Numbered from the stretch's first letter, positions 7,033-30,163 are shown. The stretch: DNA of 64,000 nucleotides from an uncultured Bacilli bacterium (GCA_947598485.1 CANQFJ010000002.1:12065-76064), one strand, 5' to 3'. Notes: a model not told the origin generated them from the sequence alone. Numbers and translations: made by a program.

Positions 7033-7083
7033 TTTGTTGTCTATAAAAACTCTAAAAGTAAAATTAATATAAACATCTTATTA

Positions 7084-7113
7084 TTGTTAAATCTTCTTAT
7101 TATGGGTTATAAT
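7084..7113 (+). promoter_or_regulatory. Putative promoter of the tagO operon (TTGTTA, 18 nt, TATAAT)
   Basis: The hexamers are at 7084-7089 and 7108-7113, about 17 nt upstream of the AGGAG RBS of the gene starting at 7130. Confidence 0.35.
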
Positions 7114-7129
7114 ACTAATAGGAGTTATA

Positions 7130-8191
7130 ATGAATTTTGTTATTAATAATCACAATATATTAGAAATATTAATTGTAACTTATTTAGTTAGTTTTATCTT
7201 AGTATTTTTATCTAAAAGACTTGCTATTTATGTTGGTGCTATGGACATTCCTAACGCTAGAAAAATTCATAAGCATCCTATGCCAAGACTTGGCGGTATA
7301 GCTATTTATGGTGGCTTTTTATTTGGTTATATGGCCTATGGTGAAGTTACTACACAAATGCTTTCTATTTTAATAGCTTCATTTATATTAGTTGTATTAG
7401 GCATTTTAGATGATATTAAACCAATTAGGGCTAAATATAAATTCTTAGTTCATCTTGTGGTAGCCTCGATTGTTGTTTTTTATGGCCGATTATTCTTTCA
7501 AAATATTACTTTATTAGGACTTAATTTATACTTTCCAATTTTAGCAGGACAAATAATATCAGTTTTATTTATTGTTTCTGCTATAAATGCTATTAATTTA
7601 ATTGATGGTTTAGATGGACTTTGTGCTGGGGTAAGTAGCATTTATTTTGCCACTATAGCTGTTATAGCCTTTATAATGGGTAATACTTCAGGCCTTGATG
7701 TAATTTTGTGTTTAATAATGCTTGGCTCAACTTTAGGATTTTTAACACATAATTTTCCCCCTGCCAAAGTATTCATGGGCGACTGTGGTAGTACCTTCTT
7801 AGGTTTTATGATATCTATTATAGCTTTATTAGGATTTAAAGTGGCTACTATTACATCTTTAGTAGTGCCATTATTAATTTTAGCAATTCCAATATTTGAT
7901 ACATTATTTGCTATAATAAGAAGACTTATTAAACATCAAAGCATAGGAGAACCTGATAAAGAACATTTGCATCATCAACTTCTTAGAATGAAGTTCTCAC
8001 CAAGAAAAAGCTTATTTATAATCTATTTTATCAGTATGCTTTTCTCTTTAGTATCAATATTCTATGCAATAGGAAATAATAGTAAGTTAGCTATAGGTAT
8101 ATATATTGTGTTAATGATCTTATTAATTATTATTGTTGCTAAGACTAATATCTTATTTGAACATAAGAAAAAGAAGAAAAAGGAATTATAA
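7130..8191 (+). CDS. tagO: Undecaprenyl-phosphate N-acetylhexosamine-1-phosphate transferase (TagO/WecA, MraY-like GT4 family)
   Basis: Polytopic membrane protein with the MraY/WecA motifs PRLGGIAI, NAINLIDGLDGL and FMGDCGSTFLGF. It has an AGGAG RBS. Confidence 0.85.
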   Translation: MNFVINNHNILEILIVTYLVSFILVFLSKRLAIYVGAMDIPNARKIHKHPMPRLGGIAIYGGFLFGYMAYGEVTTQMLSILIASFILVVLGILDDIKPIRAKYKFLVHLVVASIVVFYGRLFFQNITLLGLNLYFPILAGQIISVLFIVSAINAINLIDGLDGLCAGVSSIYFATIAVIAFIMGNTSGLDVILCLIMLGSTLGFLTHNFPPAKVFMGDCGSTFLGFMISIIALLGFKVATITSLVVPLLILAIPIFDTLFAIIRRLIKHQSIGEPDKEHLHHQLLRMKFSPRKSLFIIYFISMLFSLVSIFYAIGNNSKLAIGIYIVLMILLIIIVAKTNILFEHKKKKKKEL

Positions 8192-8916
8192 TGGCTAAAA
8201 AAGAAGAAAAAGTACTTGGCTTCAAAGTATGCACTTTAGAATATAACAAATTATTAACAAATATTAAAAAAGATTTAACTAATAATAAGAGTAATATAAT
8301 TTACAATATTAATCCTTTGATTGTAATGAATTTTTATAAAAATGAACTGATAAAAGAAAAATTTAATGAGCAAAAATATAATATTCCCGATGGGATAGGA
8401 ACTGTTTTAGCTTTAAAAATACATGGAATCAAAATACCATCTCGTATAGCAGGCATAGATTTATTTCAAGATTTTTTAAATGTCGCTGCAAAAGATAAGT
8501 ATAAAGTATACTTGTATGGAGCTAAAAAAGAAGTTGTAACAAAGGCTAAAGAAAATATTGAAAAACAATATAAAGGCATCAATATTGTAGGTATTACAAG
8601 CGGTTATGAAAGGGAAGATAAAGCTTTAGCTAATATTATAAAAACAAAGCCCGATATGCTTTTTGTCGCCACAGGAAGTCCAAAACAGGAAGAATTTATT
8701 ATAAATAATGAGGATAAGCTAAAAGATATTAGATTAATTATGCCTGTAGGCGGGTCCTTTGATGTTATAAGTGGTTACACTAAAAGAGCGCCAAAAGTAT
8801 GGCAAAAACTTAAATTAGAATGGCTTTATCGCATGATTAAAGAGCCGAAAAGAATAAAAAATAATTTAAACTTATTTAAGTTTATGTATTTAGTAGTATT
8901 TAAAAATAATAAATAA
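8191..8916 (+). CDS. tagA: WecB/TagA/CpsF-family (GT26) N-acetylmannosaminyltransferase
   Basis: The GT26 core includes YLYGAKKEVVTKA...MLFVATGSPKQEEFI. Its start codon overlaps the tagO stop (TAATG), which suggests an operon. Confidence 0.8.
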   Translation: MAKKEEKVLGFKVCTLEYNKLLTNIKKDLTNNKSNIIYNINPLIVMNFYKNELIKEKFNEQKYNIPDGIGTVLALKIHGIKIPSRIAGIDLFQDFLNVAAKDKYKVYLYGAKKEVVTKAKENIEKQYKGINIVGITSGYEREDKALANIIKTKPDMLFVATGSPKQEEFIINNEDKLKDIRLIMPVGGSFDVISGYTKRAPKVWQKLKLEWLYRMIKEPKRIKNNLNLFKFMYLVVFKNNK

Positions 8917-9926: not shown

Positions 9927-10020
9927 AAAGTCCTTTGAATTTCGTGAAAAAGTAGTTAAAAAGTGCTTCGAATTTCGTGAAAAAATAGTCAAAAAGTCCT
10001 TTGAATTTCGTGAAATTTAT
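9927..10020 (+). repeat. Three tandem direct repeats of 31-34 bp (core GTCCTTTGAATTTCGTGAAA) upstream of the AAA+ ATPase gene
   Basis: Units begin near 9927, 9962 and 9995. A single copy lies at 8915-8947. Confidence 0.7.
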
Positions 10021-10068
10021 TGATTTCAAGCTAAAAAAATGGTATCCTTATTCATAAGGAGAATACCT

Positions 10069-11379
10069 ATGAAAAGAAAAATTTATAACGATTTATTAAA
10101 ATGGAAAGAAGAAATTCATGCTAAACCATTAATTATGCTTGGTGTAAGACAATGTGGTAAAACTCATATTATTAATGAGTTTTGTCAAAATGAATATCAA
10201 AATTATATTTATGTTAATTTAATTAAAAGAAATGATATTATTGATTTATATGATTCTGTTTTATCTTCGGATGAAAAATTTAATAGATTAAAGGTATTAT
10301 TAGACTTTGATATTGAAAAGGATAATACTATTTTATTTATTGATGAAATTCAAGAATCAGAAAAAATAATTACTGAACTTAAGTATTTTTGGGAGGATCA
10401 TCCAAAATTACGTGTTATTTGCGCTGGTTCGCTTCTCGGTGTTAGGCTAAAAAGATTTAAATCTTCTTTTCCTGTTGGAAAAATCACTTTTTCTTATTTA
10501 TATCCTATGGATTTTGAAGAATTTCTTTGGGCAAATAACGAAGAACTTTTAATTGACGTTATTAAAGATGGTTATGATAATAATAGAGCTTTAGGCAAAG
10601 CACTACATAATAAGGCTTTAAAATATTACTATATGTATTTAATGTCTGGGGGAATGCCTGAAAGCGTTAAAAAAATTATTGCTACTAAAGGAGATTATAT
10701 TAAATACGATAATAGTGTTTTAAATGACATATTATCTTCTTATTTTGATGATATGAGAAGATATGTTACTAATGATGCCGAATCTTTAAAAGTACAAAGA
10801 ATTTATAATTCTTTACCATCGCAATTAAATAATTTATCTAGTAAATTCCAATATTCTTTAGTTGATAAAGATGCTCGGTCTAGAGATTATGCAACAGCTT
10901 TAGATTGGCTTGAAGCTAGTAATTTAGTTTTAAGGGCTAAAATGGCAAAAAGGGCGGAAATTCCTTTGGAAGGTTTTATAGATGTAGATACATTCAAACT
11001 TTTCTTAAGTGATGTTGGAATATTAAACACTTTATTAAAAATATCTCCTATGGATATTATTAAAGATAATATTTCTTTGTATAAAGGAATTATAACCGAA
11101 AATTTTGTTGCTAATCAGTTAGTATGTAATAATTTTTCTTTATATTATTGGAAAAATGATGCCACAGCGGAAATTGATTTTCTTTTATATACTAGAGATG
11201 GTATTATTCCTTTAGAAGTTAAAGCCAGAGAAAATACGCAATCTAAAAGTTTAAATATTTATAGGGAAATATATCATCCTAAATATTCAATAAGATTAAG
11301 TACTAAAGATTTCGCTTATGATCCTAAAAAACAAATTAAATCTGTTCCTTTATATGCTGTTTTTCTTATTAAACCATAA
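10069..11379 (+). CDS. AAA+ ATPase of the COG1373 family (AAA_14 domain plus DUF4143); the DUF4143 C-terminus carries a PD-(D/E)XK-like motif
   Basis: The Walker A motif is GVRQCGKTH and the Walker B motif is ILFIDEIQ. The C-terminal motif EIDFLLY...IPLEVKA fits a D...E-x-K nuclease signature. The RBS AAGGAG lies 7 nt before the ATG at 10069; the ATG at 10039 given in the ORF track is unlikely to be the real start. Confidence 0.7.
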   Translation: MKRKIYNDLLKWKEEIHAKPLIMLGVRQCGKTHIINEFCQNEYQNYIYVNLIKRNDIIDLYDSVLSSDEKFNRLKVLLDFDIEKDNTILFIDEIQESEKIITELKYFWEDHPKLRVICAGSLLGVRLKRFKSSFPVGKITFSYLYPMDFEEFLWANNEELLIDVIKDGYDNNRALGKALHNKALKYYYMYLMSGGMPESVKKIIATKGDYIKYDNSVLNDILSSYFDDMRRYVTNDAESLKVQRIYNSLPSQLNNLSSKFQYSLVDKDARSRDYATALDWLEASNLVLRAKMAKRAEIPLEGFIDVDTFKLFLSDVGILNTLLKISPMDIIKDNISLYKGIITENFVANQLVCNNFSLYYWKNDATAEIDFLLYTRDGIIPLEVKARENTQSKSLNIYREIYHPKYSIRLSTKDFAYDPKKQIKSVPLYAVFLIKP

Positions 11380-11395
11380 TAGTATTAAAGTTAGT

Positions 11396-11421
11396 TAGAG
11401 CCTATCTCTAGCTTTTTATTT
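11396..11421 (+). terminator. Weak terminator-like hairpin (TAGAG-CCTAT-CTCTA followed by GCTTTTTATTT) after the ATPase gene
   Basis: A short AT-rich stem is followed by a T-rich tract. Confidence 0.3.
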
Positions 11422-11536
11422 GGCTAGAAACCTAGGATTTTTGGCCGTTATAATTTAAAATTGTTTCTAAAATATTAATTATATGGTATATTTATATTGT
11501 GATTGTATAGGAAAAATATAATAGAGGAAGATGCAA

Positions 11537-12349
11537 ATGAAATTTTTCAAAAACATTTATTATAATATTATTAAGTATAAATTCTTATTATCGCAATTAG
11601 TAATAAGAGATTTTAAGATAAAATATAAAAGAAGCGTATTAGGAGTTTTATGGAGCCTATTGTATCCTCTTTTAATGATGGCGGTAATGGCATTAGTTTT
11701 CTCTCATATGTTTAAATTTAGTATGGAGGGCGTTAACTATTTAGTTTATTTAATGAGTGGCTTAGTAGTATTTAATTATTTTAGTGAAGCTACTAACTCG
11801 GCAATGACCTCAATAACGGGAAATTCTTCTTTGATAAATAAAGTATATATACCTAAGTATATTTTTCCTGTGGCTAAATGTTTATTCGTAGGAATTAATT
11901 TTGTTTTATCATTAATTCCTCTTTTGCTTATTATTTTAATATCTGGTGATGCTGCAGCTGGAACAAAATGCTATATTAATATTTATTATTTGTTACTACC
12001 TTTTATATATGTTTGCATGTTTATGTTTACTTTAGGAGTAAGCTACATTTTATCAACAATTGCCGTTTTCTTACGTGATATGATTTATATATGGGGTATC
12101 CTTCTTACTATTTTAAATTATTTTACTCCAATCTTTTATTCAATAACAATTCTTCCAACCTGGCTTCAAAACATATTTAAATTTAATCCTTTATATTTAT
12201 ATATAAATGCTACTAGAGAAATAGTTTTATTTTCTAGAATGCCAAGTCCATTATATTTACTTGCGTGCTTTTTATCAGGCTTTATAGTAATGATAATAGG
12301 TATGGCTGTATTTAGGAAGAAACAAAATAAGTTTATTTATTACTTATAG
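11537..12349 (+). CDS. tagG: ABC-2 family polysaccharide/teichoic-acid export permease (TagG/Wzm-like)
   Basis: Six TM helices typical of the ABC-2 family. The RBS GAGGAAG sits before the second ATG. Confidence 0.75.
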   Translation: MKFFKNIYYNIIKYKFLLSQLVIRDFKIKYKRSVLGVLWSLLYPLLMMAVMALVFSHMFKFSMEGVNYLVYLMSGLVVFNYFSEATNSAMTSITGNSSLINKVYIPKYIFPVAKCLFVGINFVLSLIPLLLIILISGDAAAGTKCYINIYYLLLPFIYVCMFMFTLGVSYILSTIAVFLRDMIYIWGILLTILNYFTPIFYSITILPTWLQNIFKFNPLYLYINATREIVLFSRMPSPLYLLACFLSGFIVMIIGMAVFRKKQNKFIYYL

Positions 12350-12358
12350 GAGATTACA

Positions 12359-13102
12359 ATGATAGATATAAAGAATGTAGGAATGAAATTTAATCTCGGT
12401 GTTGAAAAAGATAATTCTTTAAAAATGACCTTCATAAGGTTATTTGACCGGAAGAAAAGAATTAAAAAAAGTGATTTTTGGGCTTTAAAAGATGTAAGCT
12501 TTCACGTAGACCGTGGTGATGTTGTAGGTTTAATTGGCTCAAACGGTGCTGGTAAAAGTACCTTACTTAAAGTAGTAAGTGGCGTATTGAAGCCTACTGA
12601 AGGTAGTGTGGAAGTAGGAGGCGCTATATCACCTATGATTGAGCTTGGTGCAGGATTTGATGGTGATTTAACTGCTAGAGAAAATATTTTCTTAAATGGT
12701 GCTATCCTTGGTTATTCCAAAGAATTTTTACTTGAGAAGTTTGATGAAATAGTAGAATTTTCTGAATTAAGAGATTTCTTAGATGTACCAGTTAAAAACT
12801 TTTCTTCAGGAATGGTTGCCAAACTAGCATTTTCAATTTCAACTGTTGTTGATCCTGAAATACTAATAGTAGATGAAATTCTTTCCGTAGGAGATATTAA
12901 ATTTCAAGAAAAAAGTAAGAATAAGATGATGTCAATGATTAAGGGAGGAACAACAGTTTTATATGTTTCTCACTCACTTGAGTCAATTAAGGAGCTATGT
13001 AATAAAGTGGTGTGGCTTGATAAAGGAAAAATTGTTAAAATCGGTGATCCCATTGAGGTTTGTAATGAATATTATGATAAACAATTGAAGGGCAAAAGTT
13101 AG
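12359..13102 (+). CDS. tagH: Polysaccharide/teichoic-acid ABC exporter ATP-binding protein (TagH/Wzt-like)
   Basis: Walker A GSNGAGKST, ABC signature SSGMVAKLAF and Walker B ILIVDEIL. Confidence 0.8.
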   Translation: MIDIKNVGMKFNLGVEKDNSLKMTFIRLFDRKKRIKKSDFWALKDVSFHVDRGDVVGLIGSNGAGKSTLLKVVSGVLKPTEGSVEVGGAISPMIELGAGFDGDLTARENIFLNGAILGYSKEFLLEKFDEIVEFSELRDFLDVPVKNFSSGMVAKLAFSISTVVDPEILIVDEILSVGDIKFQEKSKNKMMSMIKGGTTVLYVSHSLESIKELCNKVVWLDKGKIVKIGDPIEVCNEYYDKQLKGKS

Positions 13103-19762: not shown

Positions 19763-20716
19763 ATGAAAAATAAAAAAGAAAAAATAACAATTATTGGTCA
19801 ATGCTATAATGAGGAAGAAATGATACCATTATATTATGAAGCTATGACTAATTTAATGAAAAAAATGAATTACGTTGATTTTGAAATTATTTTTATAGAT
19901 GACCATAGTCAGGATGAATCATTAAAAATAATTAAAGAGTTAGCTTCTAAGGATGAGCGCATAAAATGTATTTCCATGGCAAAAAATTTTGGAAGAGAAG
20001 CCTGTGCAATGGCTGGATTTAAATATGCAACTGGTGATTATATTACAACTATGGATTTAGACTTACAAGATCCTCCTGAGTTGTTAATTTCAATGTATGA
20101 TGCACTAAAAGATGGGAAATATGATATTGCAGCTGCCAAAGCTCTCACTAGAAAAGGCTATTCTTTTATTCATAAAATGTGTACGAAAATTTTTTTTGGA
20201 ATTATTAATAAAATATCTTCGGTTAAAATGGTTGATGGTCAAAGAGAATATCGACTAATGACAAGACAGGTTGTCCAAGCTATCTTAGAATATAAAGAAT
20301 ATAATTTATTTAACAAAGGACTATTAAATGATGTTGGATTTAATACTAAATGGATTGAATTCGAAAATATTGAAAGAGTTGCAGGAAATACTAAATTTCC
20401 CTATAAGAGAATGATTAAATACGCCATTACAGGCATAATAGACTACTCATTATTTCCTTTAATATTTGTATTGTTTTTAGGAATTGGCGCTTTAATTCTT
20501 GATTTAGTTTTATTGCTTTTGCTCATTATATTTGCTATAGCAAATATAAGTATAAACCTATCTTGCTTTATACTTATAATATTATCTTTATTTATGTTTG
20601 GAGTAATTTTGTGTTGTATGGGAATAACTAACCTTTATATTGCACAGATTCATTTAGAAGTAAAACATCGTCCTATTTATACAATTAAGACTTTAATAAA
20701 TATTGATAAAGAGTAA
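19763..20716 (+). CDS. GT2 polyprenyl-phosphate sugar synthase (GtrB/CsbB/ArnC-like)
   Basis: A GT2 catalytic domain (IIFIDDHSQDES...DLDLQDPPE) followed by two C-terminal TM helices, the typical GtrB topology. Confidence 0.75.
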   Translation: MKNKKEKITIIGQCYNEEEMIPLYYEAMTNLMKKMNYVDFEIIFIDDHSQDESLKIIKELASKDERIKCISMAKNFGREACAMAGFKYATGDYITTMDLDLQDPPELLISMYDALKDGKYDIAAAKALTRKGYSFIHKMCTKIFFGIINKISSVKMVDGQREYRLMTRQVVQAILEYKEYNLFNKGLLNDVGFNTKWIEFENIERVAGNTKFPYKRMIKYAITGIIDYSLFPLIFVLFLGIGALILDLVLLLLLIIFAIANISINLSCFILIILSLFMFGVILCCMGITNLYIAQIHLEVKHRPIYTIKTLINIDKE

Positions 20717-20776
20717 GCTATTAATTTCTTGATTATACTATGAAAATAGTAAACAATGGAATAGAGGATTATTTTC

Positions 20777-20805
20777 TTGAATTAATCATCTATTTTTTTT
20801 ATAAT
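20777..20805 (+). promoter_or_regulatory. Sigma-70 promoter (TTGAAT, 17 nt, TATAAT) upstream of the acylation module
   Basis: TTGAAT is at 20777-20782 and TATAAT at 20800-20805. The gene start (TTG, with RBS GAAGGTGA) is at 20825. Confidence 0.5.
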
Positions 20806-20824
20806 GTAAGTAGAAGGTGATAAT

Positions 20825-22600
20825 TTGAAGGAATTAAAGTATCCATTTGATGTTGAATATTTAATAAAAAATAAGAAAAAAATAAAAAGGGAATTACTTA
20901 ATAAAGAAGGTTTAATAGAGAAAAATATAGCTATTTTAGGTGGATCTACTACTAGTGAGATTAAGAATATGTTAGAAATATTTTTATTAAATTATGGCAT
21001 CAAGCCCACCTTTTATGAATCTGAATATAATAAATATTATGAAGATGCAGTTTTTGGCAATGAAGAGTTAGATAATTTTAAACCAGATATCATTTATATA
21101 CATACAACAAATAGAAACATAATGAATTATCCTACGATTGTAGATGATGAAGATACAATAAATCAAATGTTGGAAACTGAGTATAAAAAGCTAGAACAAA
21201 TCTGGGAAAAGTTGCAAGAAAAATTTGGAGCAGTCATTATTCAAAATAATTTTGAATATCCTTATTACCGCTTACTCGGCAATAAGGATGTTTCTGATAT
21301 GCATGGAAGAATTAATTTTATTAATAGATTGAATGATAAAATATATAGTTATATTAATAATCATAATAATATATTTATTAATGATATTAATTATTTGTCT
21401 AGCTGCTATGGATTAGATAAATGGGCTAATCAATTTTACTGGCATATGTACAAGTATGCATTAGAGGTGCCTGCAATCCCTTATTTAGCGTTCAATATTG
21501 CTAATATTATTAAATCTATTTATGGTAAAAATAAAAAAGCATTTGTTTTAGATTTAGATAATACACTATGGGGCGGAATAGTAGGCGATGATGGTGTTGA
21601 AAATCTTGCTATTGGACCTGAAGTTCCAAGTGGCCAAGTTTATGCTGAATTTCAAGAATATATAAAAGCTCATAAAAATTTAGGAATTATTTTAAATGTT
21701 AATTCTAAAAATGAGCATGAAAATGCTATTGCTGGATTAAATCATCCAGCAGGAATCTTAAAGCCAGATGATTTTATAATAATTAAAGCTAATTGGAATC
21801 CTAAACATATGAACATTAAGGATATTGCTGAAGAATTAAATCTAGGAGCCGATAGTTTTGTTTTTGTTGATGATAATCCGGCAGAAAGACACATAGTTGA
21901 AGAGACTTATGAAGGAATTGGAGTGCCTGAAATAGATGTTCCTGAAAATTATATAAGAATAATTGACCATAATGGTTATTTTGAAATGACTAATTTCTCT
22001 AAAGAAGATATAAAGAAAAATGAGCTATATAAGGATAATGCTAAAAGAAGTCAAATGATGGCAACATTTGAAAATTATGATGATTATTTAAAATCATTAA
22101 AAATGAAAGCTGAAATAAGTTCATTTAAGCCAATATATTTGGAACGTATAAGTCAATTATCAAATAAAAGTAATCAATTTAATTTGACTACTAAAAGATA
22201 TTCACTTGCTGATATTGAGCATGTAGCAAATAGTGAAAATTATATAAAAATTTATGGTAAATTAGAAGATATTTTTGGCGATAATGGTGTTATCTCTGTT
22301 GTCATAGGACATATTAAGGGTAAAGAGTTACACATTGATTTATGGATTATGAGCTGTAGAGTTTTAAAACGAAATATGGAATATGCCATGATGGATGAAT
22401 TAATGCGTCGAGCAAAAGAAGAAAATATTACTACTGTTTATGGATATTATTATCCAACCTTGAAGAATAAAATGGTTAAAAACTTTTACGAAGATCAAGG
22501 CTTTACTTTAATAAGTGAAGACGATAAAGGAAATAAATTCTATAAACAAGATGTAGAAAGTTATAAAAATAAAAATAATGTAATAGAGGTGGAAGAATAA
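20825..22600 (+). CDS. FkbH-like HAD-IIIC family protein (glyceryl-ACP loading-enzyme family) with a C-terminal GNAT-like domain
   Basis: The HAD motif I is VLDLDNTLWGG. The FkbH-like segment is NVNSKNEHENA...ADSFVFVDDNPAE. The C-terminus contains IMSCRVLKR with a conserved Cys. It starts at TTG. Confidence 0.7.
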   Translation: MKELKYPFDVEYLIKNKKKIKRELLNKEGLIEKNIAILGGSTTSEIKNMLEIFLLNYGIKPTFYESEYNKYYEDAVFGNEELDNFKPDIIYIHTTNRNIMNYPTIVDDEDTINQMLETEYKKLEQIWEKLQEKFGAVIIQNNFEYPYYRLLGNKDVSDMHGRINFINRLNDKIYSYINNHNNIFINDINYLSSCYGLDKWANQFYWHMYKYALEVPAIPYLAFNIANIIKSIYGKNKKAFVLDLDNTLWGGIVGDDGVENLAIGPEVPSGQVYAEFQEYIKAHKNLGIILNVNSKNEHENAIAGLNHPAGILKPDDFIIIKANWNPKHMNIKDIAEELNLGADSFVFVDDNPAERHIVEETYEGIGVPEIDVPENYIRIIDHNGYFEMTNFSKEDIKKNELYKDNAKRSQMMATFENYDDYLKSLKMKAEISSFKPIYLERISQLSNKSNQFNLTTKRYSLADIEHVANSENYIKIYGKLEDIFGDNGVISVVIGHIKGKELHIDLWIMSCRVLKRNMEYAMMDELMRRAKEENITTVYGYYYPTLKNKMVKNFYEDQGFTLISEDDKGNKFYKQDVESYKNKNNVIEVEE

Positions 22601-22842
22601 TGAAAAGAGAAGAAATTTTTGAAAGACTAAATAATGTATTTAGAGATGTATTTGATGATGAATCAATTACTGTTAGTGAAAAGACAACTTCAGCAGATAT
22701 AGAAGATTGGGATAGCCTAGAGCATATTAATTTAATTGTAGCTGTTGAGCAAGAATTTGGAATTAAGTTTAATATGGGCGAAGTAACAACTATGAAAAAC
22801 GTTGGAGAAATGGTTAATATTATTGAATCTAGAGTTAAATAA
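22600..22842 (+). CDS. Acyl/peptidyl carrier protein (ACP-like, 80 aa)
   Basis: The phosphopantetheine attachment motif DIEDWDSLEHINLIVAVE is present (serine in DSL). Its start overlaps the stop of the FkbH-like gene. Confidence 0.75.
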   Translation: MKREEIFERLNNVFRDVFDDESITVSEKTTSADIEDWDSLEHINLIVAVEQEFGIKFNMGEVTTMKNVGEMVNIIESRVK

Positions 22843-22890
22843 CTAGAAATAATTGCTTTTTCATGTTATCCTTTTAGTAAGAGGAAAAAT

Positions 22891-23907
22891 ATGAAAAAGC
22901 TGGCTAAAGTAATAATTTTTATATTAATTTTTGGATGCATATATAGCGTTGTATTTTCAAAATTACATATTGAAAGAAATACAATTAACTATTTTTATGA
23001 TGAACCTGCAGATAGTTTAGATATTATGTATCTTGGCTCTAGTAATGCCTATAACCATTTTAATGCGGTATTAGCCTTTCATGAATACGGGTTTACTACA
23101 GGCCTGTTATCGAGTGATAGTCAGCCATTTACCGCAATTAAATATTTATTAGAAGAAAGTAGAAAGGCACAAAATCCTAAGCTATATGTTATTGATATAT
23201 CTATAGCTAATAATATAAAATCTAATGAAGGCGGCATAAGAAAAGTAACTGATGAATTGAAACCTTCACTAAATAAAATTAAAGCTACTACTAACATTTT
23301 AAAATATAGTGATATACCAAAAGAAGATTATATAAACTATTATTTTACATTTATTTTATATCATGATTTATGGAAGCAATATAAGAAAGATTTGGGAGAA
23401 CTATCAATTTTATTTAAAGGGCATTTGTTAAGCAGTCAAACAGTAACTATAGAACCTCAAGAACAATTTGAGTGGAATGATGAAATAGGTGATTTAACCA
23501 AAGATCAAAAAGAAGTAATTTATGATTTGATAGAATATATTAAAAGCAATAAATTAAATGTATTGTTTGTAGTTTCTCCAAGAACATATTTTGAAGAAGA
23601 CCTAAAAGAATTAAATGCAATTATAAATATCATTGAAAAAGAAAAATTGAGTGTTTTGAATTTTAATAAATTAGAAGATTTAAATATTAATTATGAGACA
23701 GATTATTTTAATTATGCTCATTTAAACGCATATGGAGCTAAGAAATTTACCTTATACTTTTCTGATTGTTTAAAGAAAAATTTTGAATTACCAGACCATC
23801 GAAATGATGATAGGTATGCTTCATGGAATGAGACTTATGATAGATATCTTCAAGAATTTTATAATTATACAGGTAAAAATTATGAAACAATACTTGAACA
23901 GTCGTAG
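22891..23907 (+). CDS. DltD/AlgX-like extracytoplasmic O-acyltransferase partner protein (paralog 1 of 3), N-terminally membrane-anchored
   Basis: N-terminal TM anchor. The motifs LGSSNAYNHFNAVLAFHEYGFTTGLL and YAHLNAYGAKKF are shared with the genes at 25858 and 26900. Confidence 0.55.
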   Translation: MKKLAKVIIFILIFGCIYSVVFSKLHIERNTINYFYDEPADSLDIMYLGSSNAYNHFNAVLAFHEYGFTTGLLSSDSQPFTAIKYLLEESRKAQNPKLYVIDISIANNIKSNEGGIRKVTDELKPSLNKIKATTNILKYSDIPKEDYINYYFTFILYHDLWKQYKKDLGELSILFKGHLLSSQTVTIEPQEQFEWNDEIGDLTKDQKEVIYDLIEYIKSNKLNVLFVVSPRTYFEEDLKELNAIINIIEKEKLSVLNFNKLEDLNINYETDYFNYAHLNAYGAKKFTLYFSDCLKKNFELPDHRNDDRYASWNETYDRYLQEFYNYTGKNYETILEQS

Positions 23908-23942
23908 TATAAGAGTATTAAATATTATAGAAGGCGGTAAAA

Positions 23943-24329
23943 ATGAAATTTCATCATATAGGAATAGCGACAGATGATATTGAGTCGATGATAAAGAAAT
24001 GTCAGAAATTTTTGGAAGTAAAATCGGTTTCTGATATTGTTTATGACGATAATCAAAAAGCAAATTTATGTATGCTTGATATTAATGATGGTGTTAAGAT
24101 TGAATTAATTAGTGGAGAAGTAGTTCAAAACATTTTGCGTAAAAGACAATATTTATATCATACCTGTTATTCTGTTGAAAATATAGAACAAACAATTAAT
24201 GAATTAATCGAAGATGGGGCGTTGCTAGTAAGAGAAGCTAGGGAGGCAATTTTATTTAACAATCGCAAGGTGGCCTTTTTAATGTGGGATTTGGGCCTAA
24301 TTGAATTGGTTGAGGAGGAAAAACTATGA
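23943..24329 (+). CDS. VOC/glyoxalase-family protein resembling methylmalonyl-CoA epimerase
   Basis: It has the N-terminal FHHIGIATDD motif typical of methylmalonyl-CoA epimerases and the two-module VOC fold. It is 128 aa long. Confidence 0.55.
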   Translation: MKFHHIGIATDDIESMIKKCQKFLEVKSVSDIVYDDNQKANLCMLDINDGVKIELISGEVVQNILRKRQYLYHTCYSVENIEQTINELIEDGALLVREAREAILFNNRKVAFLMWDLGLIELVEEEKL

Positions 24330-25855
24330 TACTTACTACTTTTAACTTTTTATTTTTTGCTGTAATAACGATTTTAATATATTTTATTATTCCTAAAAAG
24401 CTACAATGGCTTTTTTTGCTAGTATCCAGCTTTTATTTTTTGTTTTATAAATCTTTTAGTATTTTAAATTTAATTTACGTAATGATTATTTTGATAACTT
24501 CATGGGGTGCAGGATTAATAATAGATAAATTTAAAAACAAAAAGATTGTTAAATATGTTTTGATAATTAGTGTTTTAATCATTTTAGGTGAATTAGTTTT
24601 CTTAAAAGATAGTAATTTATTCATAACTACTATTAATCATTTGTGTAATTTGATGGGAATAAATAAACAATTTGATTTAGTATACAGGAATGCTCCCATA
24701 GGGATATCTTATTATTCACTTATTATGATTGGTTATATTATTGACGTTTATCGTGGAGTATGCAAACCACAAAAAAATATTTTAAAATGTGCATTATTTA
24801 TGTCTTATTTTCCAATTCTAACTAGCGGTCCATTTATACGCTACAATGATATGGAAGACAAATTGTTTGGAAAACATAAATTTAATTATGATAATTTTTG
24901 CTATGGACTAACTAGAGTTTGTTGGGGGTTATTTAAAATATTAGTAATATCTCAAAGATTAGCAATATTTGTAAATACTGTTTATGCTGATTATTACACC
25001 TATAATGGATTTTATATTATTATTGCTGCAATGTTCTTTGTTTTACAATTATATACTAACTTTTCCGGCTCAATAGATGTAATTATGGGTGTATCAAAAA
25101 TTATGGGAATTGATTTGCCAGAAAACTTTACAAGTCCATTTTATTCTAGAACAATTACCGAGTTATGGAGAAATTGGCATATAACGTTAGGCGCTTGGCT
25201 TAAAGATTATATTTTTTATCCGTTAATGAAATCGGATTTTATACAAAATCTTGGCAAATTCTTTAAAAAGATATTTGGTAAAAAAGTGAGTAAAAAAATC
25301 ACATTATATTTACCAATGTTAATAATGTGGATTTTGATAGGAATTTGGCATGGTGGTGCCTATACTTTTATTATCTCATCTGGAATACTACAATTTATTT
25401 TTATTTTTCTAGAAGATACTTTGGCGCCTTTAGCTAAAAAGATTAATAAAAAATTGAATATTAATACTGAAACTTTTGGCTATAAATTCTATCAATGTGT
25501 AAGAACATATTTATTATTTTCATTTTCAATGATATTCTTTAGAGCCAATACTGTAGGCGAGGCTATTGGTATTATAAAAAATATGTTTGCATGGAATCCA
25601 TGGATTTTACTAGATCATACATCATTATATACACTTGGCTTAGATATGCTTGATTTTAAAGTACTTATGATTAGTTTAGTTGTATTATTTGTAGTTGGCA
25701 GAATGCAAATGAAATTTGATGTAATAAAAAAAGTATTTGAACAAAATATTGTATTTAGATGGATAGTATTATATTTATTAATATTTTCAATAATTATTTT
25801 TGGAATGTATGGTCCTGGTTATGATGCAGCAACATTTATATATAGACAATTTTAG
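24326..25855 (+). CDS. MBOAT-family membrane-bound O-acyltransferase (DltB/AlgI-like)
   Basis: Polytopic membrane protein. The MBOAT catalytic-His motif is RNWHITLGAWLKDYIFYPL, and a second His is at IGIWHGG. Confidence 0.8.
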   Translation: MILTTFNFLFFAVITILIYFIIPKKLQWLFLLVSSFYFLFYKSFSILNLIYVMIILITSWGAGLIIDKFKNKKIVKYVLIISVLIILGELVFLKDSNLFITTINHLCNLMGINKQFDLVYRNAPIGISYYSLIMIGYIIDVYRGVCKPQKNILKCALFMSYFPILTSGPFIRYNDMEDKLFGKHKFNYDNFCYGLTRVCWGLFKILVISQRLAIFVNTVYADYYTYNGFYIIIAAMFFVLQLYTNFSGSIDVIMGVSKIMGIDLPENFTSPFYSRTITELWRNWHITLGAWLKDYIFYPLMKSDFIQNLGKFFKKIFGKKVSKKITLYLPMLIMWILIGIWHGGAYTFIISSGILQFIFIFLEDTLAPLAKKINKKLNINTETFGYKFYQCVRTYLLFSFSMIFFRANTVGEAIGIIKNMFAWNPWILLDHTSLYTLGLDMLDFKVLMISLVVLFVVGRMQMKFDVIKKVFEQNIVFRWIVLYLLIFSIIIFGMYGPGYDAATFIYRQF

Positions 25856-25857
25856 CT

Positions 25858-26883
25858 ATGAAAAATTTTGTTAAATTTATTTTGTTTATACTATTGGGAA
25901 TATTTATATGGCACTGTGTATTTAAAGTATTATGGATTGAAGAAAATGGCATAAATAGTTTTTATGAAGATTCCGAAATTCCCATGGATGTCATTTTTCT
26001 CGGTGCAAGTAATGCCTTTTGGCAATTTAATACAGTGTTAGCTTTCCATGAGTATGGTTTTGCTACTGGCATGCTCGCTACTGGTGGACAAAGTTTCGTC
26101 GCTACAGAATTTTTATTGAAAGAAGCGCAAAAATATCAAAACCCAAATGTGTACGTTATAGATATAAATAATATTGCAGTTGGAATAGATTTCTTTGAAG
26201 AAGGAATAATTAGAAAAGTTACAGATAATATGAAATTTTCTAAAAACAAATTAGATACGATAGAAACTTTATTAAAATATACACCTTTAGAAAAAGATGA
26301 ATATATAAATTATTATTTAAGCTTCTTAACTTATCATAATTCGTGGAAGAGCGTTAATATTAATAATTTTAAAAATATGACTATGTTTAAGGGTTATTTT
26401 TTTGATAGTAGTATGATAGAAAATGAACCTTTTTCTAAAACTGTTTGGTGTGATAATGAAGAAAAAATTGATGATAATAACGAAGAAGTATTGCTTCACT
26501 TAATAGATTACATTAAAGAAAATAAATTAGAAGTATTATTTATTATACCACCAAGAACATTTGGCGATTCTCATTGCGCAAAGTTAAATTATGCTAAAAG
26601 AATTTTAGAAGAAAATGATTTTAAAGTTTTGAACTTTAGCGAAGGTAATGAAATGAATATTGACTTTCAACATGATTTAGTAAATGAAGCTCACTTAAAT
26701 GTTTATGGCGCTACTAAATACACAGTGTATTTAGGTAATTACCTGTCAGCTAATTACCATTTAAAAAAACATACAAATGATAATAAATATTTATCATGGC
26801 AAAATGAATATGAAAGATTTAAGGATACCTTTAAGGAAATATCTGGAACAGATTTTGAAAGTTTGGTTCAAGAAGCTTCTTAA
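25858..26883 (+). CDS. DltD/AlgX-like partner protein (paralog 2)
   Basis: Same architecture and motifs as 22891 (LGASNAFWQFNTVLAFHEYGFATGML, EAHLNVYGATKY). Confidence 0.55.
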   Translation: MKNFVKFILFILLGIFIWHCVFKVLWIEENGINSFYEDSEIPMDVIFLGASNAFWQFNTVLAFHEYGFATGMLATGGQSFVATEFLLKEAQKYQNPNVYVIDINNIAVGIDFFEEGIIRKVTDNMKFSKNKLDTIETLLKYTPLEKDEYINYYLSFLTYHNSWKSVNINNFKNMTMFKGYFFDSSMIENEPFSKTVWCDNEEKIDDNNEEVLLHLIDYIKENKLEVLFIIPPRTFGDSHCAKLNYAKRILEENDFKVLNFSEGNEMNIDFQHDLVNEAHLNVYGATKYTVYLGNYLSANYHLKKHTNDNKYLSWQNEYERFKDTFKEISGTDFESLVQEAS

Positions 26884-26899
26884 TTTGGAGGGTTAAGTA

Positions 26900-27940
26900 A
26901 TGAAAATAAAAAAAGTTATTAAAATAATAGCATTTATTTTGATATTTATGCTAATTTGGAATTATGTTTTTACAATTATATGGGCTAATAGAAATTCTAT
27001 TTCTCAATTTTATGAAGAACCTAAAAATAGCTTAGATGTAGTATATATTGGCTCAAGCAATAGTTATGCCCATTTTAATAACACTTTAGCATATCATCTT
27101 TATGGATATACTACAGGATTATTAGCTAGTGATGGACAACCTTTTGCGCTAGTAGAGTATTTATTAAAAGAAGCCACTAAATATCAAAAACCTAATGTTT
27201 ATGTTATAGATATAAATTGTATTACAACTGATGTTGGTTATTTTAATAGTGGAGATGTTCGTAAAGTCACTGACAATATGAAATTTAGTAAAAATAGAAT
27301 TGATGCTATTAATGATCTTATTCAGTATTTACCCCAAGAAGATCAAGATGAAAAGCTAAGTTTTTATTTTAGCTTCTTGACTTACCACAACTCTTGGCGT
27401 TATATAGGAGACTATAGCTTTAAGCCTATCAGCTTAATTAAAGGGCACTTAATAGATGAAGGCACAGCAGTAATAAGTCCTGAAGAGGAATATGTTTGGA
27501 AAAAGGAAGAGATGGAGCTTCCAGAGGAAAATAAACAAATTTTAACCGACTTAATGGATTATATAGAAGATGAAAAATTAGAGGTATTATTTGTAATTCC
27601 TCCAAGAAGTTTTACAGAAGAAAATAATAAAAAATTAAATTATGCGGCAAGAATGTTAGAAGATAGAGGCTTTAAAGTATTTAATGCCAATTTAGTTGAT
27701 GAAATAAATATAGATTTTTCTCATGATTTATATAACTCCGCTCATTTAAATGCATATGGAGCTACTAAATTTACAAAATATTTTGCAAAATATCTAAAAG
27801 ATAATTATAACTTAAAAGATCATAGATCAGATGAAAAATATGAATCTTGGAATAAAGCTTATGAAGAGTATGTAGAAAGATTTGAAAAGGTGACAGGCGA
27901 GAACTTTCAAGATTATTTAGATAATGGAAGCGAAAAGTAG
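26900..27940 (+). CDS. DltD/AlgX-like partner protein (paralog 3)
   Basis: Same architecture and motifs (IGSSNSYAHFNNTLAYHLYGYTTGLL, SAHLNAYGATKF). Confidence 0.55.
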   Translation: MKIKKVIKIIAFILIFMLIWNYVFTIIWANRNSISQFYEEPKNSLDVVYIGSSNSYAHFNNTLAYHLYGYTTGLLASDGQPFALVEYLLKEATKYQKPNVYVIDINCITTDVGYFNSGDVRKVTDNMKFSKNRIDAINDLIQYLPQEDQDEKLSFYFSFLTYHNSWRYIGDYSFKPISLIKGHLIDEGTAVISPEEEYVWKKEEMELPEENKQILTDLMDYIEDEKLEVLFVIPPRSFTEENNKKLNYAARMLEDRGFKVFNANLVDEINIDFSHDLYNSAHLNAYGATKFTKYFAKYLKDNYNLKDHRSDEKYESWNKAYEEYVERFEKVTGENFQDYLDNGSEK

Positions 27941-27991
27941 TGTATCATCGTATAACTCAAGAAAACTTTTAGATAGGAGTGAAGCGATTAA

Positions 27992-28705
27992 ATGAAAAAA
28001 ATCCATATTTCTATTGATGATACTATTAATGTCTTTCAAGATTTAACTACTTATGGTGAAAATTACAGTAGTATTTTTGATAACTGGTTTCTTAAAGAGT
28101 TAAAGAAATTACATGATGATTATGGCATGAAATTTACTTTATATTGTTTTTTAGAGAATATGGATTTAAGTTTTGAGTTGAAAAATTGTACAACCAAATT
28201 TAGACAAGAATTCAAAAAAAATAAAAAATGGTTGAGATTTGGTTTCCATGGTCTTAATGGAAAAACAAAACTAGAAAAATTAACTGCTAAAGAAATTGAA
28301 TCAATGTATTTAGACTTTAGCAATATATTATATAAAGTTACGGGATTAAAGCCCTATAAGTTGGTTAGAATTCATAATTGGAATCTAAACTATGATACAA
28401 TTATGATGTTAAAGAAATATCGCTTAAAGTATTTAACGAGAGAAGATAATGATAAATCGTATAATTTAAGTGATGTTGATTTAGAAAAATTAAATTTATA
28501 TGGCAAAGTTATTAGTAATGGTATAACTTATAAAAAATCATCATTTAGATTAGAAAAGATTAGTACTCATGATATGGAAGATATTTTGAACTGTAAAACT
28601 AAAGAATATTATATTTATACGCATGAGTGGATGCTTTATGATAATTTAAATGAGACGCTAAATAAGTTAAAGCTTATTGGCAAATGGGCTAGCAAATATA
28701 TATAA
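27992..28705 (+). CDS. Hypothetical cytoplasmic protein, possibly with a carbohydrate-esterase (CE4-like) fold
   Basis: The N-terminus has HISIDDT (similar to the NodB motif TFDDG), and His residues follow at FGFHG and RIHNW. It has no signal peptide. The family assignment is uncertain. Confidence 0.3.
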   Translation: MKKIHISIDDTINVFQDLTTYGENYSSIFDNWFLKELKKLHDDYGMKFTLYCFLENMDLSFELKNCTTKFRQEFKKNKKWLRFGFHGLNGKTKLEKLTAKEIESMYLDFSNILYKVTGLKPYKLVRIHNWNLNYDTIMMLKKYRLKYLTREDNDKSYNLSDVDLEKLNLYGKVISNGITYKKSSFRLEKISTHDMEDILNCKTKEYYIYTHEWMLYDNLNETLNKLKLIGKWASKYI

Positions 28706-28723
28706 GTGAAAGAGAGAATGACT

Positions 28724-30163
28724 ATGGAAAAAATAAAAAGATTAGTAAATTGTGTTATTCCCATCACGGTGTGCAATTTTAAATGTCATTATTGCTATTT
28801 GGCTCAAACAAATTCATTTGATAAAAATATACCTCAGCTAAAATATGATCTAGATATTATAAAAAAAGCATTAACTAAAGAAAGACTTGGAGGAACCTGT
28901 TTAATTAATTTATGTGCTGTTGGCGAAACTTTAATGGCACCATATCTATTTAAGCTAACAAAAGACATGCTTGATAATGGACATTACGTTGCCATAGTTA
29001 CAAATGGTTCTTTAACAAATAAAATTAAGGATTATTGTGAATTATCAAAAAGTGAAAAAAATAGATTATTTTTTAAATTTTCATATCAATTTATGGAGCT
29101 TAAAAGATTAAATTTATTACAAACGTTTTTTGACAATGTTAAAATGGTTCGTGATGCGGGAATTTCTTATACAGTTGAATTAACTGTGAATGATGAATCT
29201 ATTCCATTTATTGATGAAATTAATGAAACGTGTTTAAAAAATGTGGGAGCTTATCCTCATGTTATAGAGTCTAGAGATAATAATGATGGATATAAAAAAC
29301 TTACTAAGTTACCTAATGATAAGCATATGAAGGCGTGGTCAAAAATGGCAAGCCCAATTTTGACATTTCAAGATAAACTATGGTTGAAAAAACGTAAAGA
29401 ATTTTGTTATGCTGGCGATTGGGTCTTAAATCTTTATTTAGAAAATGGAAACTTGACGCCTTGCTTCGCTGGTGGCCCAGTTATTCAAAATATATTTGAG
29501 AATATTGATGAACCGATTCATTTTGAAGCAATAGGTAATAAATGTCCGTGGGAACATTGTTTTGCTTGTCATGTTTTGCTTACTCTCGGTGCTATTCCTC
29601 AATTAGATACTCCTAAATATTCAGAAATAAGAAATAGAAAAACTAAAGATAACAAAGAATGGCTAACTAAAGATATGAAAAGCTTTATGTCCTCAAAGTT
29701 TATTGAAAGTAATCTTGAATATTCGCAAAACAAAAAGGAAGTAATTAATTGGTATCGGGATATTGAATTAAATGGGAAAGAATGCGAAAGTAATGAATTT
29801 GCTAAGGCTTTAGACGAAACTTTAAAGGCTAGAAATATTAAGAGTGTTGGCATATATGAAAATGAAAAATACGAAAAAAGTTTGATTAATGGATTACTAC
29901 GTACATCCATTAAGGTGAAATACATTATTTCACCTAACTATAAAGAATATAATAATATAAAACATTATATTATTCATCAATTAAAATATGTTATAAAAAA
30001 GCGTATAAGAAAAGAAAAAGTGCCAATTTTAAATTATTATGACAGGTTACCCAATGTAGATGCTATAATAGTTACAGATATAACAAATTTTGATAGAATA
30101 AAAAAGGAAGTAAAAGAAAAAATACATAAGGAAGCTATATTGATTACAGAAATTGAGAGGTAG
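28724..30163 (+). CDS. Radical SAM enzyme with a C-terminal auxiliary cysteine cluster (SPASM/twitch-like)
   Basis: CNFKCHYC is a CX3CX2C motif. The SAM-binding region CAVGETLMAPY follows, and later Cys clusters are CYAGD...CFAGG and CPWEHCFAC. An AAGAGAGA RBS precedes the ATG at 28724; the GTG at 28706 is an alternative start. Confidence 0.65.
   Translation: MEKIKRLVNCVIPITVCNFKCHYCYLAQTNSFDKNIPQLKYDLDIIKKALTKERLGGTCLINLCAVGETLMAPYLFKLTKDMLDNGHYVAIVTNGSLTNKIKDYCELSKSEKNRLFFKFSYQFMELKRLNLLQTFFDNVKMVRDAGISYTVELTVNDESIPFIDEINETCLKNVGAYPHVIESRDNNDGYKKLTKLPNDKHMKAWSKMASPILTFQDKLWLKKRKEFCYAGDWVLNLYLENGNLTPCFAGGPVIQNIFENIDEPIHFEAIGNKCPWEHCFACHVLLTLGAIPQLDTPKYSEIRNRKTKDNKEWLTKDMKSFMSSKFIESNLEYSQNKKEVINWYRDIELNGKECESNEFAKALDETLKARNIKSVGIYENEKYEKSLINGLLRTSIKVKYIISPNYKEYNNIKHYIIHQLKYVIKKRIRKEKVPILNYYDRLPNVDAIIVTDITNFDRIKKEVKEKIHKEAILITEIER

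Follow-up and report, generated by a model that had tools for sequence, protein, structure and literature searches.

The subject of this analysis is a cluster of seven genes at positions 20825-27940 of a 64,000-nucleotide (nt) stretch of DNA from an uncultured Bacilli bacterium (GCA_947598485.1 CANQFJ010000002.1:12065-76064), the whole of which is referred to here as the window. An earlier note on this DNA had described the cluster as a Dlt-like esterification module in which an FkbH-like protein replaces the DltA ligase, and the seven open reading frames (ORFs) that it assigned to the module are all present on the + strand (Table 1). In 5' to 3' order, they encode an FkbH-type loader, an acyl carrier protein (ACP), a first SGNH-fold protein, a VOC enzyme, an MBOAT, and two further SGNH-fold proteins. 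The ORFs are co-directional and closely packed, with a 1-nt overlap at the loader/ACP junction, a 4-nt ATGA overlap at the VOC/MBOAT junction, and gaps of 2-48 nt at the others. Translational coupling and close packing extend over all seven genes, no convincing intergenic terminator was seen in 20825-27940, and the GC content of the module (~26-27%) is equal to that of the flanking DNA. The seven genes are a single operon in an uncultured gut Firmicute.

The product of the first gene is a predicted glyceryl-S-ACP synthase. It scores 264.3 bits against the FkbH model TIGR01686 (cutoff 146.65), covering model positions 3-320 of 323, as well as 60.9 bits against the HAD-IIIC model TIGR01681 and 36.5 bits against FkbH_N (PF21211). 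Among proteins of solved structure, sequence comparison relates it to Bacteroides BF1531 (PDB 3slr) only, with a match to residues 29-393, comprising the N-terminal and HAD parts, at an E value of 4.9e-49. The DxDxT motif and C-terminal cysteine that had been attributed to this protein are present as DLDNT and Cys511, and D243, D245, S294, K327, and D349 are invariant in an alignment with homologs at 24-83% identity. Divergent annotated FkbH homologs for this test of the catalytic residues were gathered from plasmids, and those linked to polyketide synthase (PKS) or nonribosomal peptide synthetase (NRPS) genes, at 24-26% identity to the loader, have the same HAD residues along with S510-C511-R512. 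The homolog from Bacillus thuringiensis lies between an ABC exporter and an NRPS, 3' of a hybrid NRPS/PKS gene, which we take to be the position of zwittermicin ZmaN, and that from Streptomyces adjoins an ACP and an acyl-CoA dehydrogenase. The Cys511 motif is also invariant in 36 orthologs of the loader. A structure model of the loader was of low overall confidence (predicted local distance difference test score, pLDDT, 67.7), and only domain-level matches were used from it: the front part matches 3slr, and the better-resolved C-terminal domain matches GNAT acyltransferases (E ~1e-5, template modeling score to target 0.6-0.7). Rather than an ordinary phosphatase lacking the cysteine or an acyl-transfer domain, the protein is thus one that keeps the SCR cysteine and carries a GNAT-like domain. 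The FkbH-type enzyme OzmB converts 1,3-bisphosphoglycerate to phosphoglyceryl-S-enzyme, then to glyceryl-S-enzyme, and finally to glyceryl-ACP (PMC9057759), and FkbH domains load glycerate in aeruginosin-type NRPSs (PMC10143770). Judged by its family, the loader of the window would likewise use 1,3-bisphosphoglycerate and yield glyceryl-S-ACP.

In the ACP, the DSL phosphopantetheine site that the earlier note had pointed out is found as Ser39 in WDSLE, and D38-S39-L40 is kept in at least 95% of 40 orthologs, so that the modifiable serine is conserved in the alignment. The 80-amino-acid (aa) protein matches generic ACP models, at 44.7 bits and below equivalog cutoffs, indicating that it is not the housekeeping AcpP, and no DltC model in NCBIfam matched it. 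Pfam and NCBIfam revealed no AMP-binding ORF in 20700-28000, and the module therefore lacks the DltA-type ligase of a Dlt pathway. The sole AMP-binding gene of the window (51959-53701) is FadD-like, of the fatty-acid-CoA-ligase type, and no dehydratase (DH)/ketoreductase (KR), adenylation, or additional carrier genes were found elsewhere in the window.

In the MBOAT, His285, His342, Phe504, and Tyr506 are invariant among 64 MBOATs of related loci, and FxYxxF lies at the C-terminus of nearly all full-length MBOATs in those loci. FXYXXF serves as an acyl shuttle, its tyrosine taking the acyl group from the MBOAT and delivering it to the serine of the SGNH protein, and in the Dlt pathway, which depends on a carrier, the motif resides on the microprotein DltX (PMC12148441). 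A separate DltX-like microprotein with FxYxxF was sought among ORFs of at least 25 aa in 20700-28000 and rejected, none being present; the shuttle motif is instead fused to the MBOAT. Moreover, the protein scores 112.7 bits against the DltB model TIGR04091 (cutoff 375) and is therefore no DltB equivalog. The placement of this gene in a Dlt-like logic accordingly holds insofar as an MBOAT (PF03062) lies beside a carrier, but the protein is not DltB-like, its motif is fused, and DltX is absent. Because the MBOAT carries a fused FxYxxF and lacks a DltX, yet has a carrier and loader beside it, the system is a hybrid of Dlt and PatAB/AlgIJ, combining Dlt donor logic (a carrier and loader in the operon) with the MBOAT architecture of PatA/AlgI.

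The three SGNH proteins share 42-44% mutual identity, and the catalytic serine and histidine are invariant in all three. Their description as DltD-like holds at the level of the fold, as the best Foldseek matches of the modeled paralog are DltD, but not at the level of sequence. No Pfam or NCBIfam model, including DltD, matched any of the three ORFs, phmmer returned no match among PDB chains, and a profile of 56 family sequences also found none there, with no DltD even at E<=10. On these grounds, the SGNH proteins of the window were not assigned to the DltD sequence family; they are membrane-anchored and DltD-like by fold and context, and apparently fall outside that sequence family. A homology search recovered 113 close relatives, of which none has a Pfam domain and just one is named, as "hypothetical protein"; an exhaustive profile search recovered 10,151 cluster representatives with E values up to 1e-3, and 3,945 with E values up to 1e-30. 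The family is thus large, with about 10,000 cluster representatives, and uncurated. Ser53 (GSSN), His282 (AHLN), D46, G51, G69, H163, N284, and K290 are conserved over 100 family members, and the candidates for the third triad residue of the modeled protein are D46 and D276.

The VOC enzyme passes only the superfamily model PF13669, with no equivalog-level match to methylmalonyl-CoA epimerase (TIGR03081, 35.8 bits, cutoff 114.95) or glyoxalase I (TIGR00068, 25.1 bits, cutoff 120), and the four metal-binding positions of its paired beta-alpha-beta-beta-beta fold, H5, E54, H73, and E121, are conserved in 19 orthologs. Its best PDB matches, 2qh0 and 3hdp, are end-to-end at 73 bits (E 2e-19) and are named glyoxalase I/lactoylglutathione lyase. 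The protein had been called methylmalonyl-CoA-epimerase-like; it does belong to the VOC family, but is closer to solved glyoxalase I proteins than to the epimerase model. Epimerases and glyoxalases both work through an enediolate that is stabilized by a metal and adjoins the carbon of a thioester or hemithioacetal, and the enzyme is predicted to act at C2 of an ACP-bound 2-hydroxyacyl thioester by epimerase or related enediolate chemistry.

Table 1. Features of the operon and of its surroundings, in coordinates of the window.
Feature	Position	Strand	Remarks
Sigma-70-like promoter match	20777..20805	+	TTGAAT-17-TATAAT; 10/12 match, in the 108-bp gap 5' of the module
FkbH-type loader, 591 aa	20825..22600	+	FkbH_N, HAD-IIIC phosphatase domain, GNAT-like C-terminal domain with Cys511
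HAD motif I, DLDNT	21551..21565	+	Asp243 nucleophile, Asp245; from alignments
MSCRV motif	22349..22363	+	Cys511, predicted acyl-thioester cysteine as in FkbH/OzmB-type enzymes; from alignments
ACP, 80 aa, dedicated	22600..22842	+	PP-binding 23.2 bits (cutoff 20.8); start overlaps the loader stop codon by 1 nt
WDSLE	22708..22722	+	Ser39, predicted phosphopantetheine site; from sequence and ortholog alignment
SGNH-fold paralog 1, 338 aa	22891..23907	+	N-terminal membrane anchor; GSSNA Ser51, AHLN His277; predicted extracytoplasmic acyl-transfer domain
VOC (Glyoxalase_4) metalloenzyme, 128 aa	23943..24329	+	PF13669 61.7 bits; H5/E54/H73/E121 tetrad
MBOAT, 509 aa	24326..25855	+	PF03062 38.2 bits; His285 and His342 (IWHGG) invariant; fused C-terminal acyl-shuttle segment
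FIYRQF (FxYxxF acyl-shuttle motif)	25835..25852	+	C-terminus of the MBOAT, residues 504-509; Tyr506, predicted acyl-Tyr intermediate
SGNH-fold paralog 2, 341 aa	25858..26883	+	GASNA serine, AHLN histidine
SGNH-fold paralog 3, 346 aa (modeled)	26900..27940	+	Ser53 in GSSNS (27050-27064); His282 in AHLN (27725-27751)
TagO/WecA-type initiating transferase (context, outside the module)	7130..8191	+	WecA 181.6 bits, below equivalog cutoff
TagA/TarA-type initiating transferase (context, outside the module)	8191..8916	+	TarA 161.4 bits, below equivalog cutoff
ABC-2 exporter, TagH-like ATPase (context, outside the module)	11531..13102	+	TagH 191.4 bits, below equivalog cutoff

For comparative genomics, one genome per species was scanned with one peptide pattern of the SGNH family, yielding 77 loci, almost all from uncultured gut Firmicutes, whose ORFs were scored against the proteins of the window and against those of relatives. 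In high-GC loci, some of the ORFs called were spurious. The co-occurrence of FkbH, ACP, MBOAT, and SGNH genes that the earlier note had proposed to look for is common among these loci: FkbH lies beside the MBOAT-SGNH pair in 44 of the 77 loci, and an ACP was detected in 41 of these 44. The gene set recurs in dozens of independent genomes, which places the arrangement far beyond chance. The number of SGNH copies per locus ranges from 1 to 5, and at least one copy is always directly 3' of the MBOAT. In many gut Firmicutes, the FkbH proteins retain 75-88% identity to one another, far more than their partners do, and the SGNH proteins are 40-57% identical among relatives. A conserved FkbH together with diverging, copy-variable SGNH proteins fits a constant cytoplasmic chemistry combined with a diversifying extracellular acceptor specificity.

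At the equivalent position, 9 of the 77 loci encode an amino-acid adenylation enzyme and a 73-78-aa PP-binding carrier. These adenylation enzymes score ~300-321 bits against TIGR01733 and 250-300 bits, below cutoffs, against DltA models, and their best named match is DltA. In a bootstrapped neighbor-joining tree of the MBOATs, built on a trimmed alignment, the FkbH-linked clade of the window (100/100) is sister to an adenylation-linked clade (96/100), and all FkbH-linked MBOATs grouped together in 0/100 bootstraps. While the MBOAT-SGNH chassis was conserved, its loader and carrier have thus been swapped, just as the idea of an FkbH-type loader standing in DltA's place in a carrier-dependent, Dlt-like module predicts. 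Two of the adenylation-type loci, from metagenome-assembled genomes (MAGs) of Agathobacter (L053, 11156-15661) and Eubacterium (L060, 11108-15642), encode, in this order, an SGNH protein, the adenylation enzyme, the carrier, a decarboxylase, and the MBOAT. The inserted gene, between carrier and MBOAT, has the fold of pyridoxal phosphate-dependent ornithine/diaminopimelate decarboxylases and suggests a further tailored cargo.

The 44 FkbH-linked loci also differ in their accessory enzymes. The VOC gene alone is present in 15, genes for a MaoC dehydratase and a FabG-like SDR alone in another 15, both types in 2 (L009 and L040), and neither in 10, the remaining 2 being truncated; several further loci end at contig ends. 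Among those with neither, six loci from Oscillospiraceae and other Clostridia (L054-L057, L059, and L061) have FkbH, ACP, MBOAT, and one SGNH as their only module genes. Inspection of one of these, L054, revealed a stand-alone four-gene operon with unrelated flanking genes and no other transferase nearby. With no other enzyme present, the MBOAT is the only possible consumer of the acyl-ACP in such loci. Directly 3' of the L054 operon (11101-12755) lie genes for a BlaI-type repressor and a BlaR1-type M56 sensor protease, which hints that this operon is controlled by envelope stress or beta-lactams. In L004, a second, different MBOAT paired with an AlgX/DHHW-type SGNH protein is encoded at 5877-8575, a few kb 5' of the FkbH module, indicating that two MBOAT systems coexist there.

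The VOC gene is found beside FkbH and ACP genes in three unrelated contexts, namely the window-type loci, a C. perfringens plasmid, and a Paroceanicella (alphaproteobacterial) plasmid, which argues that the VOC enzyme acts on the FkbH product. On the C. perfringens plasmid pZ1322PCP0055-3 (L086, 4676-6957), the VOC/ACP/FkbH trio lacks an MBOAT and adjoins a nucleotidyltransferase and two ABC proteins, and on the Paroceanicella plasmid (L089, 6889-10591), the trio, again without an MBOAT, adjoins an S-adenosylmethionine (SAM) methyltransferase and MprF. The set of FkbH, ACP, and VOC genes appears to be a portable cassette. The sole exception to the association of VOC with FkbH is a VOC-MBOAT-SGNH locus (L034, 7933-10987) that has 8 kb of intact upstream sequence and neither FkbH nor ACP; its loader could lie at another site, or the contig could be the product of a misassembly.

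Based on the gene content, domain families, catalytic residues, folds, synteny, and loader swapping observed here, we propose that the operon encodes a carrier-dependent MBOAT-SGNH system that esterifies an extracytoplasmic envelope glycopolymer with a three-carbon 2-hydroxyacyl group, and put the probability of this proposal at roughly 0.6. The substrate, acyl group, direction of transfer, and acceptor that we infer would be as follows. As its family and catalytic residues suggest, the loader would take the glycolytic intermediate 1,3-bisphosphoglycerate to form phosphoglyceryl-S-Cys511, and its HAD domain would dephosphorylate this intermediate, allowing glyceryl to be passed onto the phosphopantetheine arm at Ser39 of the ACP. 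The VOC enzyme would then act at C2 of glyceryl-S-ACP, where it most likely epimerizes the D-glyceryl group to L-glyceryl, and in relatives with a MaoC dehydratase and SDR instead, glyceryl-ACP would be converted to lactyl-ACP. The acyl-ACP would dock on the cytoplasmic face of the MBOAT, and His342 would catalyze acyl transfer through the membrane to Tyr506 in the protein's own FIYRQF motif, by analogy with PatA and DltB/DltX. From acyl-Tyr506, the group would move to the catalytic serine of one of the three membrane-anchored SGNH paralogs and thence to hydroxyl groups of the wall polymer, the three paralogs probably serving different acceptor positions or polymers.

The epimerization at C2 is the least secure step of this scheme. 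It is the reaction that we favor. VOC and DH/KR enzymes are jointly present in two loci, so that the two are not simple alternatives, and the glycerate of gellan, the one glycerate ester known from a bacterial glycan, is the L isomer, whereas glycolytic 1,3-bisphosphoglycerate would give D-glyceryl. It is also conceivable, if unlikely, that the same machinery carries another three-carbon cargo made with the help of the VOC enzyme. Such a cargo could be D-lactoyl-S-ACP, formed in the manner of glyoxalase I from the hemithioacetal of methylglyoxal and holo-ACP, or a pyruvoyl or 2-hydroxyacryloyl group, formed via enediolate-driven loss of the 3-hydroxyl of glyceryl-S-ACP. The names of the best solved VOC relatives and the retention of the H/E/H/E tetrad are consistent with this possibility, and the even division of loci between VOC only and MaoC plus SDR only resembles a choice between alternative routes to a similar product, particularly as FkbH, DH, and KR together are taken to yield D-lactate-ACP in the loading modules of trans-acyltransferase PKSs (PMC7901079). 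However, the coexistence of both enzyme types in L009 and L040 means that they are not strict alternatives, and since the VOC gene is always accompanied by FkbH where the upstream region is intact, bar L034, a route that bypasses FkbH is unlikely. Furthermore, a reductase to turn a 2-oxoacyl group into lactyl was not found in the window, and the ten loci with neither accessory imply that unmodified glyceryl-ACP is a competent donor.

Several considerations weigh against a carrier-dependent glyceryl transfer system. The nearest solved relatives of the VOC enzyme are named glyoxalase I rather than epimerase, the structure model of the loader is, as noted, of low overall confidence, and the 590-aa, FkbH_N-containing subfamily could act on a substrate other than that of OzmB. 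Sampling of the loci was biased, deriving from one peptide pattern and containing many rabbit-gut MAGs from one study, and the relatives all come from uncultured-genome assemblies without annotation. MBOATs with a fused FxYxxF are said to use acyl-CoA and to do so without carrier proteins (PMC12148441), and by this generalization the MBOAT of the window could be of the acetyl-CoA type. Together with the SGNH proteins, it would then form a plain acetyl-CoA-dependent O-acetylation pair of the PatAB/AlgIJ type, and FkbH, ACP, and VOC would have a separate cytoplasmic job on the same glycan, e.g., supplying a building block derived from glycerate or the N-acyl group of a nucleotide sugar. In keeping with such a division of labor, the fused motif is typical of bacterial MBOATs that use acyl-CoA, some MBOAT-SGNH pairs have no loader nearby (L065, L070, L073, L077, and others), and FkbH, ACP, and VOC occur without an MBOAT beside the nucleotidyltransferase on the C. 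perfringens plasmid. We nevertheless regard this explanation as improbable, given that the six four-gene loci leave the MBOAT as the only consumer of acyl-ACP, that a DltA-like enzyme and carrier at the same position in sister clades are hard to explain otherwise, and that translational coupling and tight packing run through the whole gene set.

A still less probable alternative concerns the SGNH paralogs, which could be esterases that remove or remodel acyl groups, or could include only one transferase among the three. The invariable presence of at least one copy directly 3' of the MBOAT and the retention of the serine and histidine in all three copies of the window argue against this, and PatB, DltD, and AlgJ provide precedent for SGNH transferases partnered with an MBOAT (PMC12148441). 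Finally, although the characterized FkbH homologs all act in PKS/NRPS pathways, the idea that FkbH and ACP feed a small molecule (a tetronate, polyketide, or nonribosomal peptide) in a secondary-metabolite cluster rather than an envelope system is hardly credible, as ketosynthase, PKS, NRPS, and condensation genes are absent from the module of the window and from all 44 FkbH loci, an MBOAT and membrane-anchored SGNH proteins are the constant partners, and the module of the window is embedded in a TagO/TagA/ABC-2 glycopolymer locus.

That locus also bears on the likely acceptor of the acyl group in the proposed esterification system. Besides the initiating transferases and exporter, it contains heptose-type nucleotide-sugar genes, a Gtr-type branch, an AT3 acyltransferase, and many glycosyltransferases. 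Together with the TagO/TagA/ABC-2 genes, the alanine racemase and DD-carboxypeptidase encoded in the window indicate that the organism makes peptidoglycan and a polymer resembling wall teichoic acid (WTA). From this genomic context, the acceptor in the window genome is probably a TagO/TagA-initiated, ABC-exported, WTA-like glycopolymer. The acceptor need not be specific to the locus, however, as stand-alone operons occur elsewhere, including L054 and a locus of the MaoC plus SDR type (L006) that lies outside any glycan locus and adjoins spo0A. The notion that the module decorates the polymer made by its own locus therefore agrees with the surroundings in the window, but may not hold, given the relatives that carry the module as an independent operon.

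A dedicated promoter had also been proposed for the operon, and a suitable string is indeed present upstream, but promoter-type matches in the AT-rich DNA of the window are not enriched (66 found, compared to 86.9 +/- 9.8 in shuffles), so that its position is plausible without carrying evidential weight. A scan of the whole 64-kb window at Rfam gathering thresholds returned zero matches, and the operon can consequently be assigned neither a riboswitch nor a leader. By the same scan, a T-box leader is absent even 5' of gltX (42859) and cysS (44287), which is unusual for Firmicutes. Directly 3' of the module (27992-30163) lie a 237-aa ORF without a match in any library and a gene for a 485-aa radical-SAM protein with weak matches to STM4011-like and viperin-like models. 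Both were considered as module members and rejected, as they lie 3' of the module in the same species only; a radical-SAM gene is also found 3' of the SGNH gene in Ca. Onthocola (L007).

Several other features of the window were observed in passing. A 992-aa protein (30167-33145) combines GT8, GT2, and polysaccharide pyruvyl-transferase domains in a single chain, and the glycopolymer locus is interrupted, after TagO/TagA and before the ABC-2 exporter, by genes for a SocA/Panacea antitoxin-like protein and an AAA_14/DUF4143/NERD ATPase (8959-11379). Where the glycan locus ends (39992-40913), a DUF1016 N-terminal domain and a YhcG PDDEXK nuclease domain are encoded on two overlapping ORFs of 157 and 155 aa, which may represent a frameshifted or split gene. 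Two large secreted proteins with cadherin-like domains are encoded at 2462-5994, the first of which also has SH3 and type I dockerin domains, a hint that the organism builds a surface assembly from cohesin-dockerin pairs.

Compared with characterized systems, the module works like Dlt and PatAB but is a member of neither. Like Dlt (DltA, DltC, DltB, DltX, and DltD), it has a cytoplasmic loader and a small phosphopantetheinyl carrier in a compact operon, its MBOAT is predicted to move the acyl group across the membrane by an FxYxxF tyrosine relay to a membrane-anchored SGNH protein that delivers it to a wall polymer, and in sister loci this MBOAT-SGNH lineage is served by a DltA-like adenylating enzyme and carrier. 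Unlike Dlt, it employs an FkbH/HAD-GNAT loader in place of the adenylating enzyme, a carrier that matches generic ACP models and no DltC model, an MBOAT ~100 aa longer than DltB with the motif fused and DltX absent, SGNH partners of a sequence family other than DltD and in three paralogs, and an additional VOC enzyme, and its predicted cargo is an uncharged 2-hydroxyacyl group as opposed to a cationic amino acid. With PatA/PatB, AlgI/AlgJ/AlgX, and WssH/WssI, it shares the invariant histidine of the MBOAT, FxYxxF on extra C-terminal sequence, and a separate SGNH partner, but those systems are described as acetyl-CoA-dependent and carrier-free (PMC12148441), whereas here a loader and dedicated ACP are present in the operon and co-inherited with the MBOAT. 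Like the glyceryl-ACP synthases FkbH, OzmB, and ZmaN, the loader has the TIGR01686 core, HAD aspartates, SCR cysteine, and an adjacent dedicated ACP, and the DH and KR partners in relatives recall the proposed FkbH-DH-KR lactyl-ACP loading modules. It differs from these synthases in its additional FkbH_N domain of ~230 aa, as found in Bacteroides BF1531 (3slr), in the absence of PKS/NRPS genes, and in its predicted consumer, a membrane acyltransferase acting on an envelope polymer.

The earlier note had considered a glyceroyl-type ester decoration of the wall glycopolymer made by this locus to be undescribed. We know of no link between the glycerate ester of gellan and FkbH, ACP, or MBOAT, and our searches of the open-access literature found no description of FkbH with an MBOAT in an envelope context, no system combining HAD-IIIC, ACP, acyltransferase, and polysaccharide, and none combining MBOAT, SGNH, carrier, and adenylation; none of the public sources searched names the proteins of the module. 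An L-glycerate ester does, however, occur as a substituent on gellan of Sphingomonas (PMC9104527), so bacterial glycans with a decoration of the kind predicted here do exist in nature, albeit in the form of a Gram-negative exopolysaccharide. What may be novel is therefore not the glycerate ester itself but its enzymology and its setting in a Gram-positive wall.

Wall esters of D-alanine and acetate control surface charge, autolysin activity, resistance to cationic peptides and lysozyme, phage adsorption, and immune recognition, and lactyl is an oxygen isostere of D-alanyl. More speculatively, and with somewhat less than even confidence, we suggest that the module represents a widespread third donor route for envelope acylation in gut Firmicutes. 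In this route, a glycolytic intermediate would be captured by FkbH, optionally tailored on the carrier by VOC epimerization or by dehydration and reduction to lactyl, and transferred by a carrier-dependent MBOAT with a built-in tyrosine shuttle and a new SGNH family to give neutral glyceryl or lactyl wall esters, the interchangeable FkbH or DltA-like loaders and tailoring cassettes producing a combinatorial ester code. With four to seven genes, the module is small enough for in vitro reconstitution, and it may offer a clue to the installation of glycerate esters like the one on gellan. If correct, the proposal would contradict the generalization that MBOATs with a fused FxYxxF use acyl-CoA and that carrier proteins serve DltB only, and would assign a role both to the 590-aa FkbH_N-type "HAD-IIIC phosphatases" of glycan loci, a large unannotated family, and to the equally anonymous SGNH family. 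For the organisms themselves, it would mean a new class of decoration on Gram-positive wall polymers, a neutral, hydrophilic 2-hydroxyacyl ester, and a metabolism in which glycolysis is linked directly to the cell surface.

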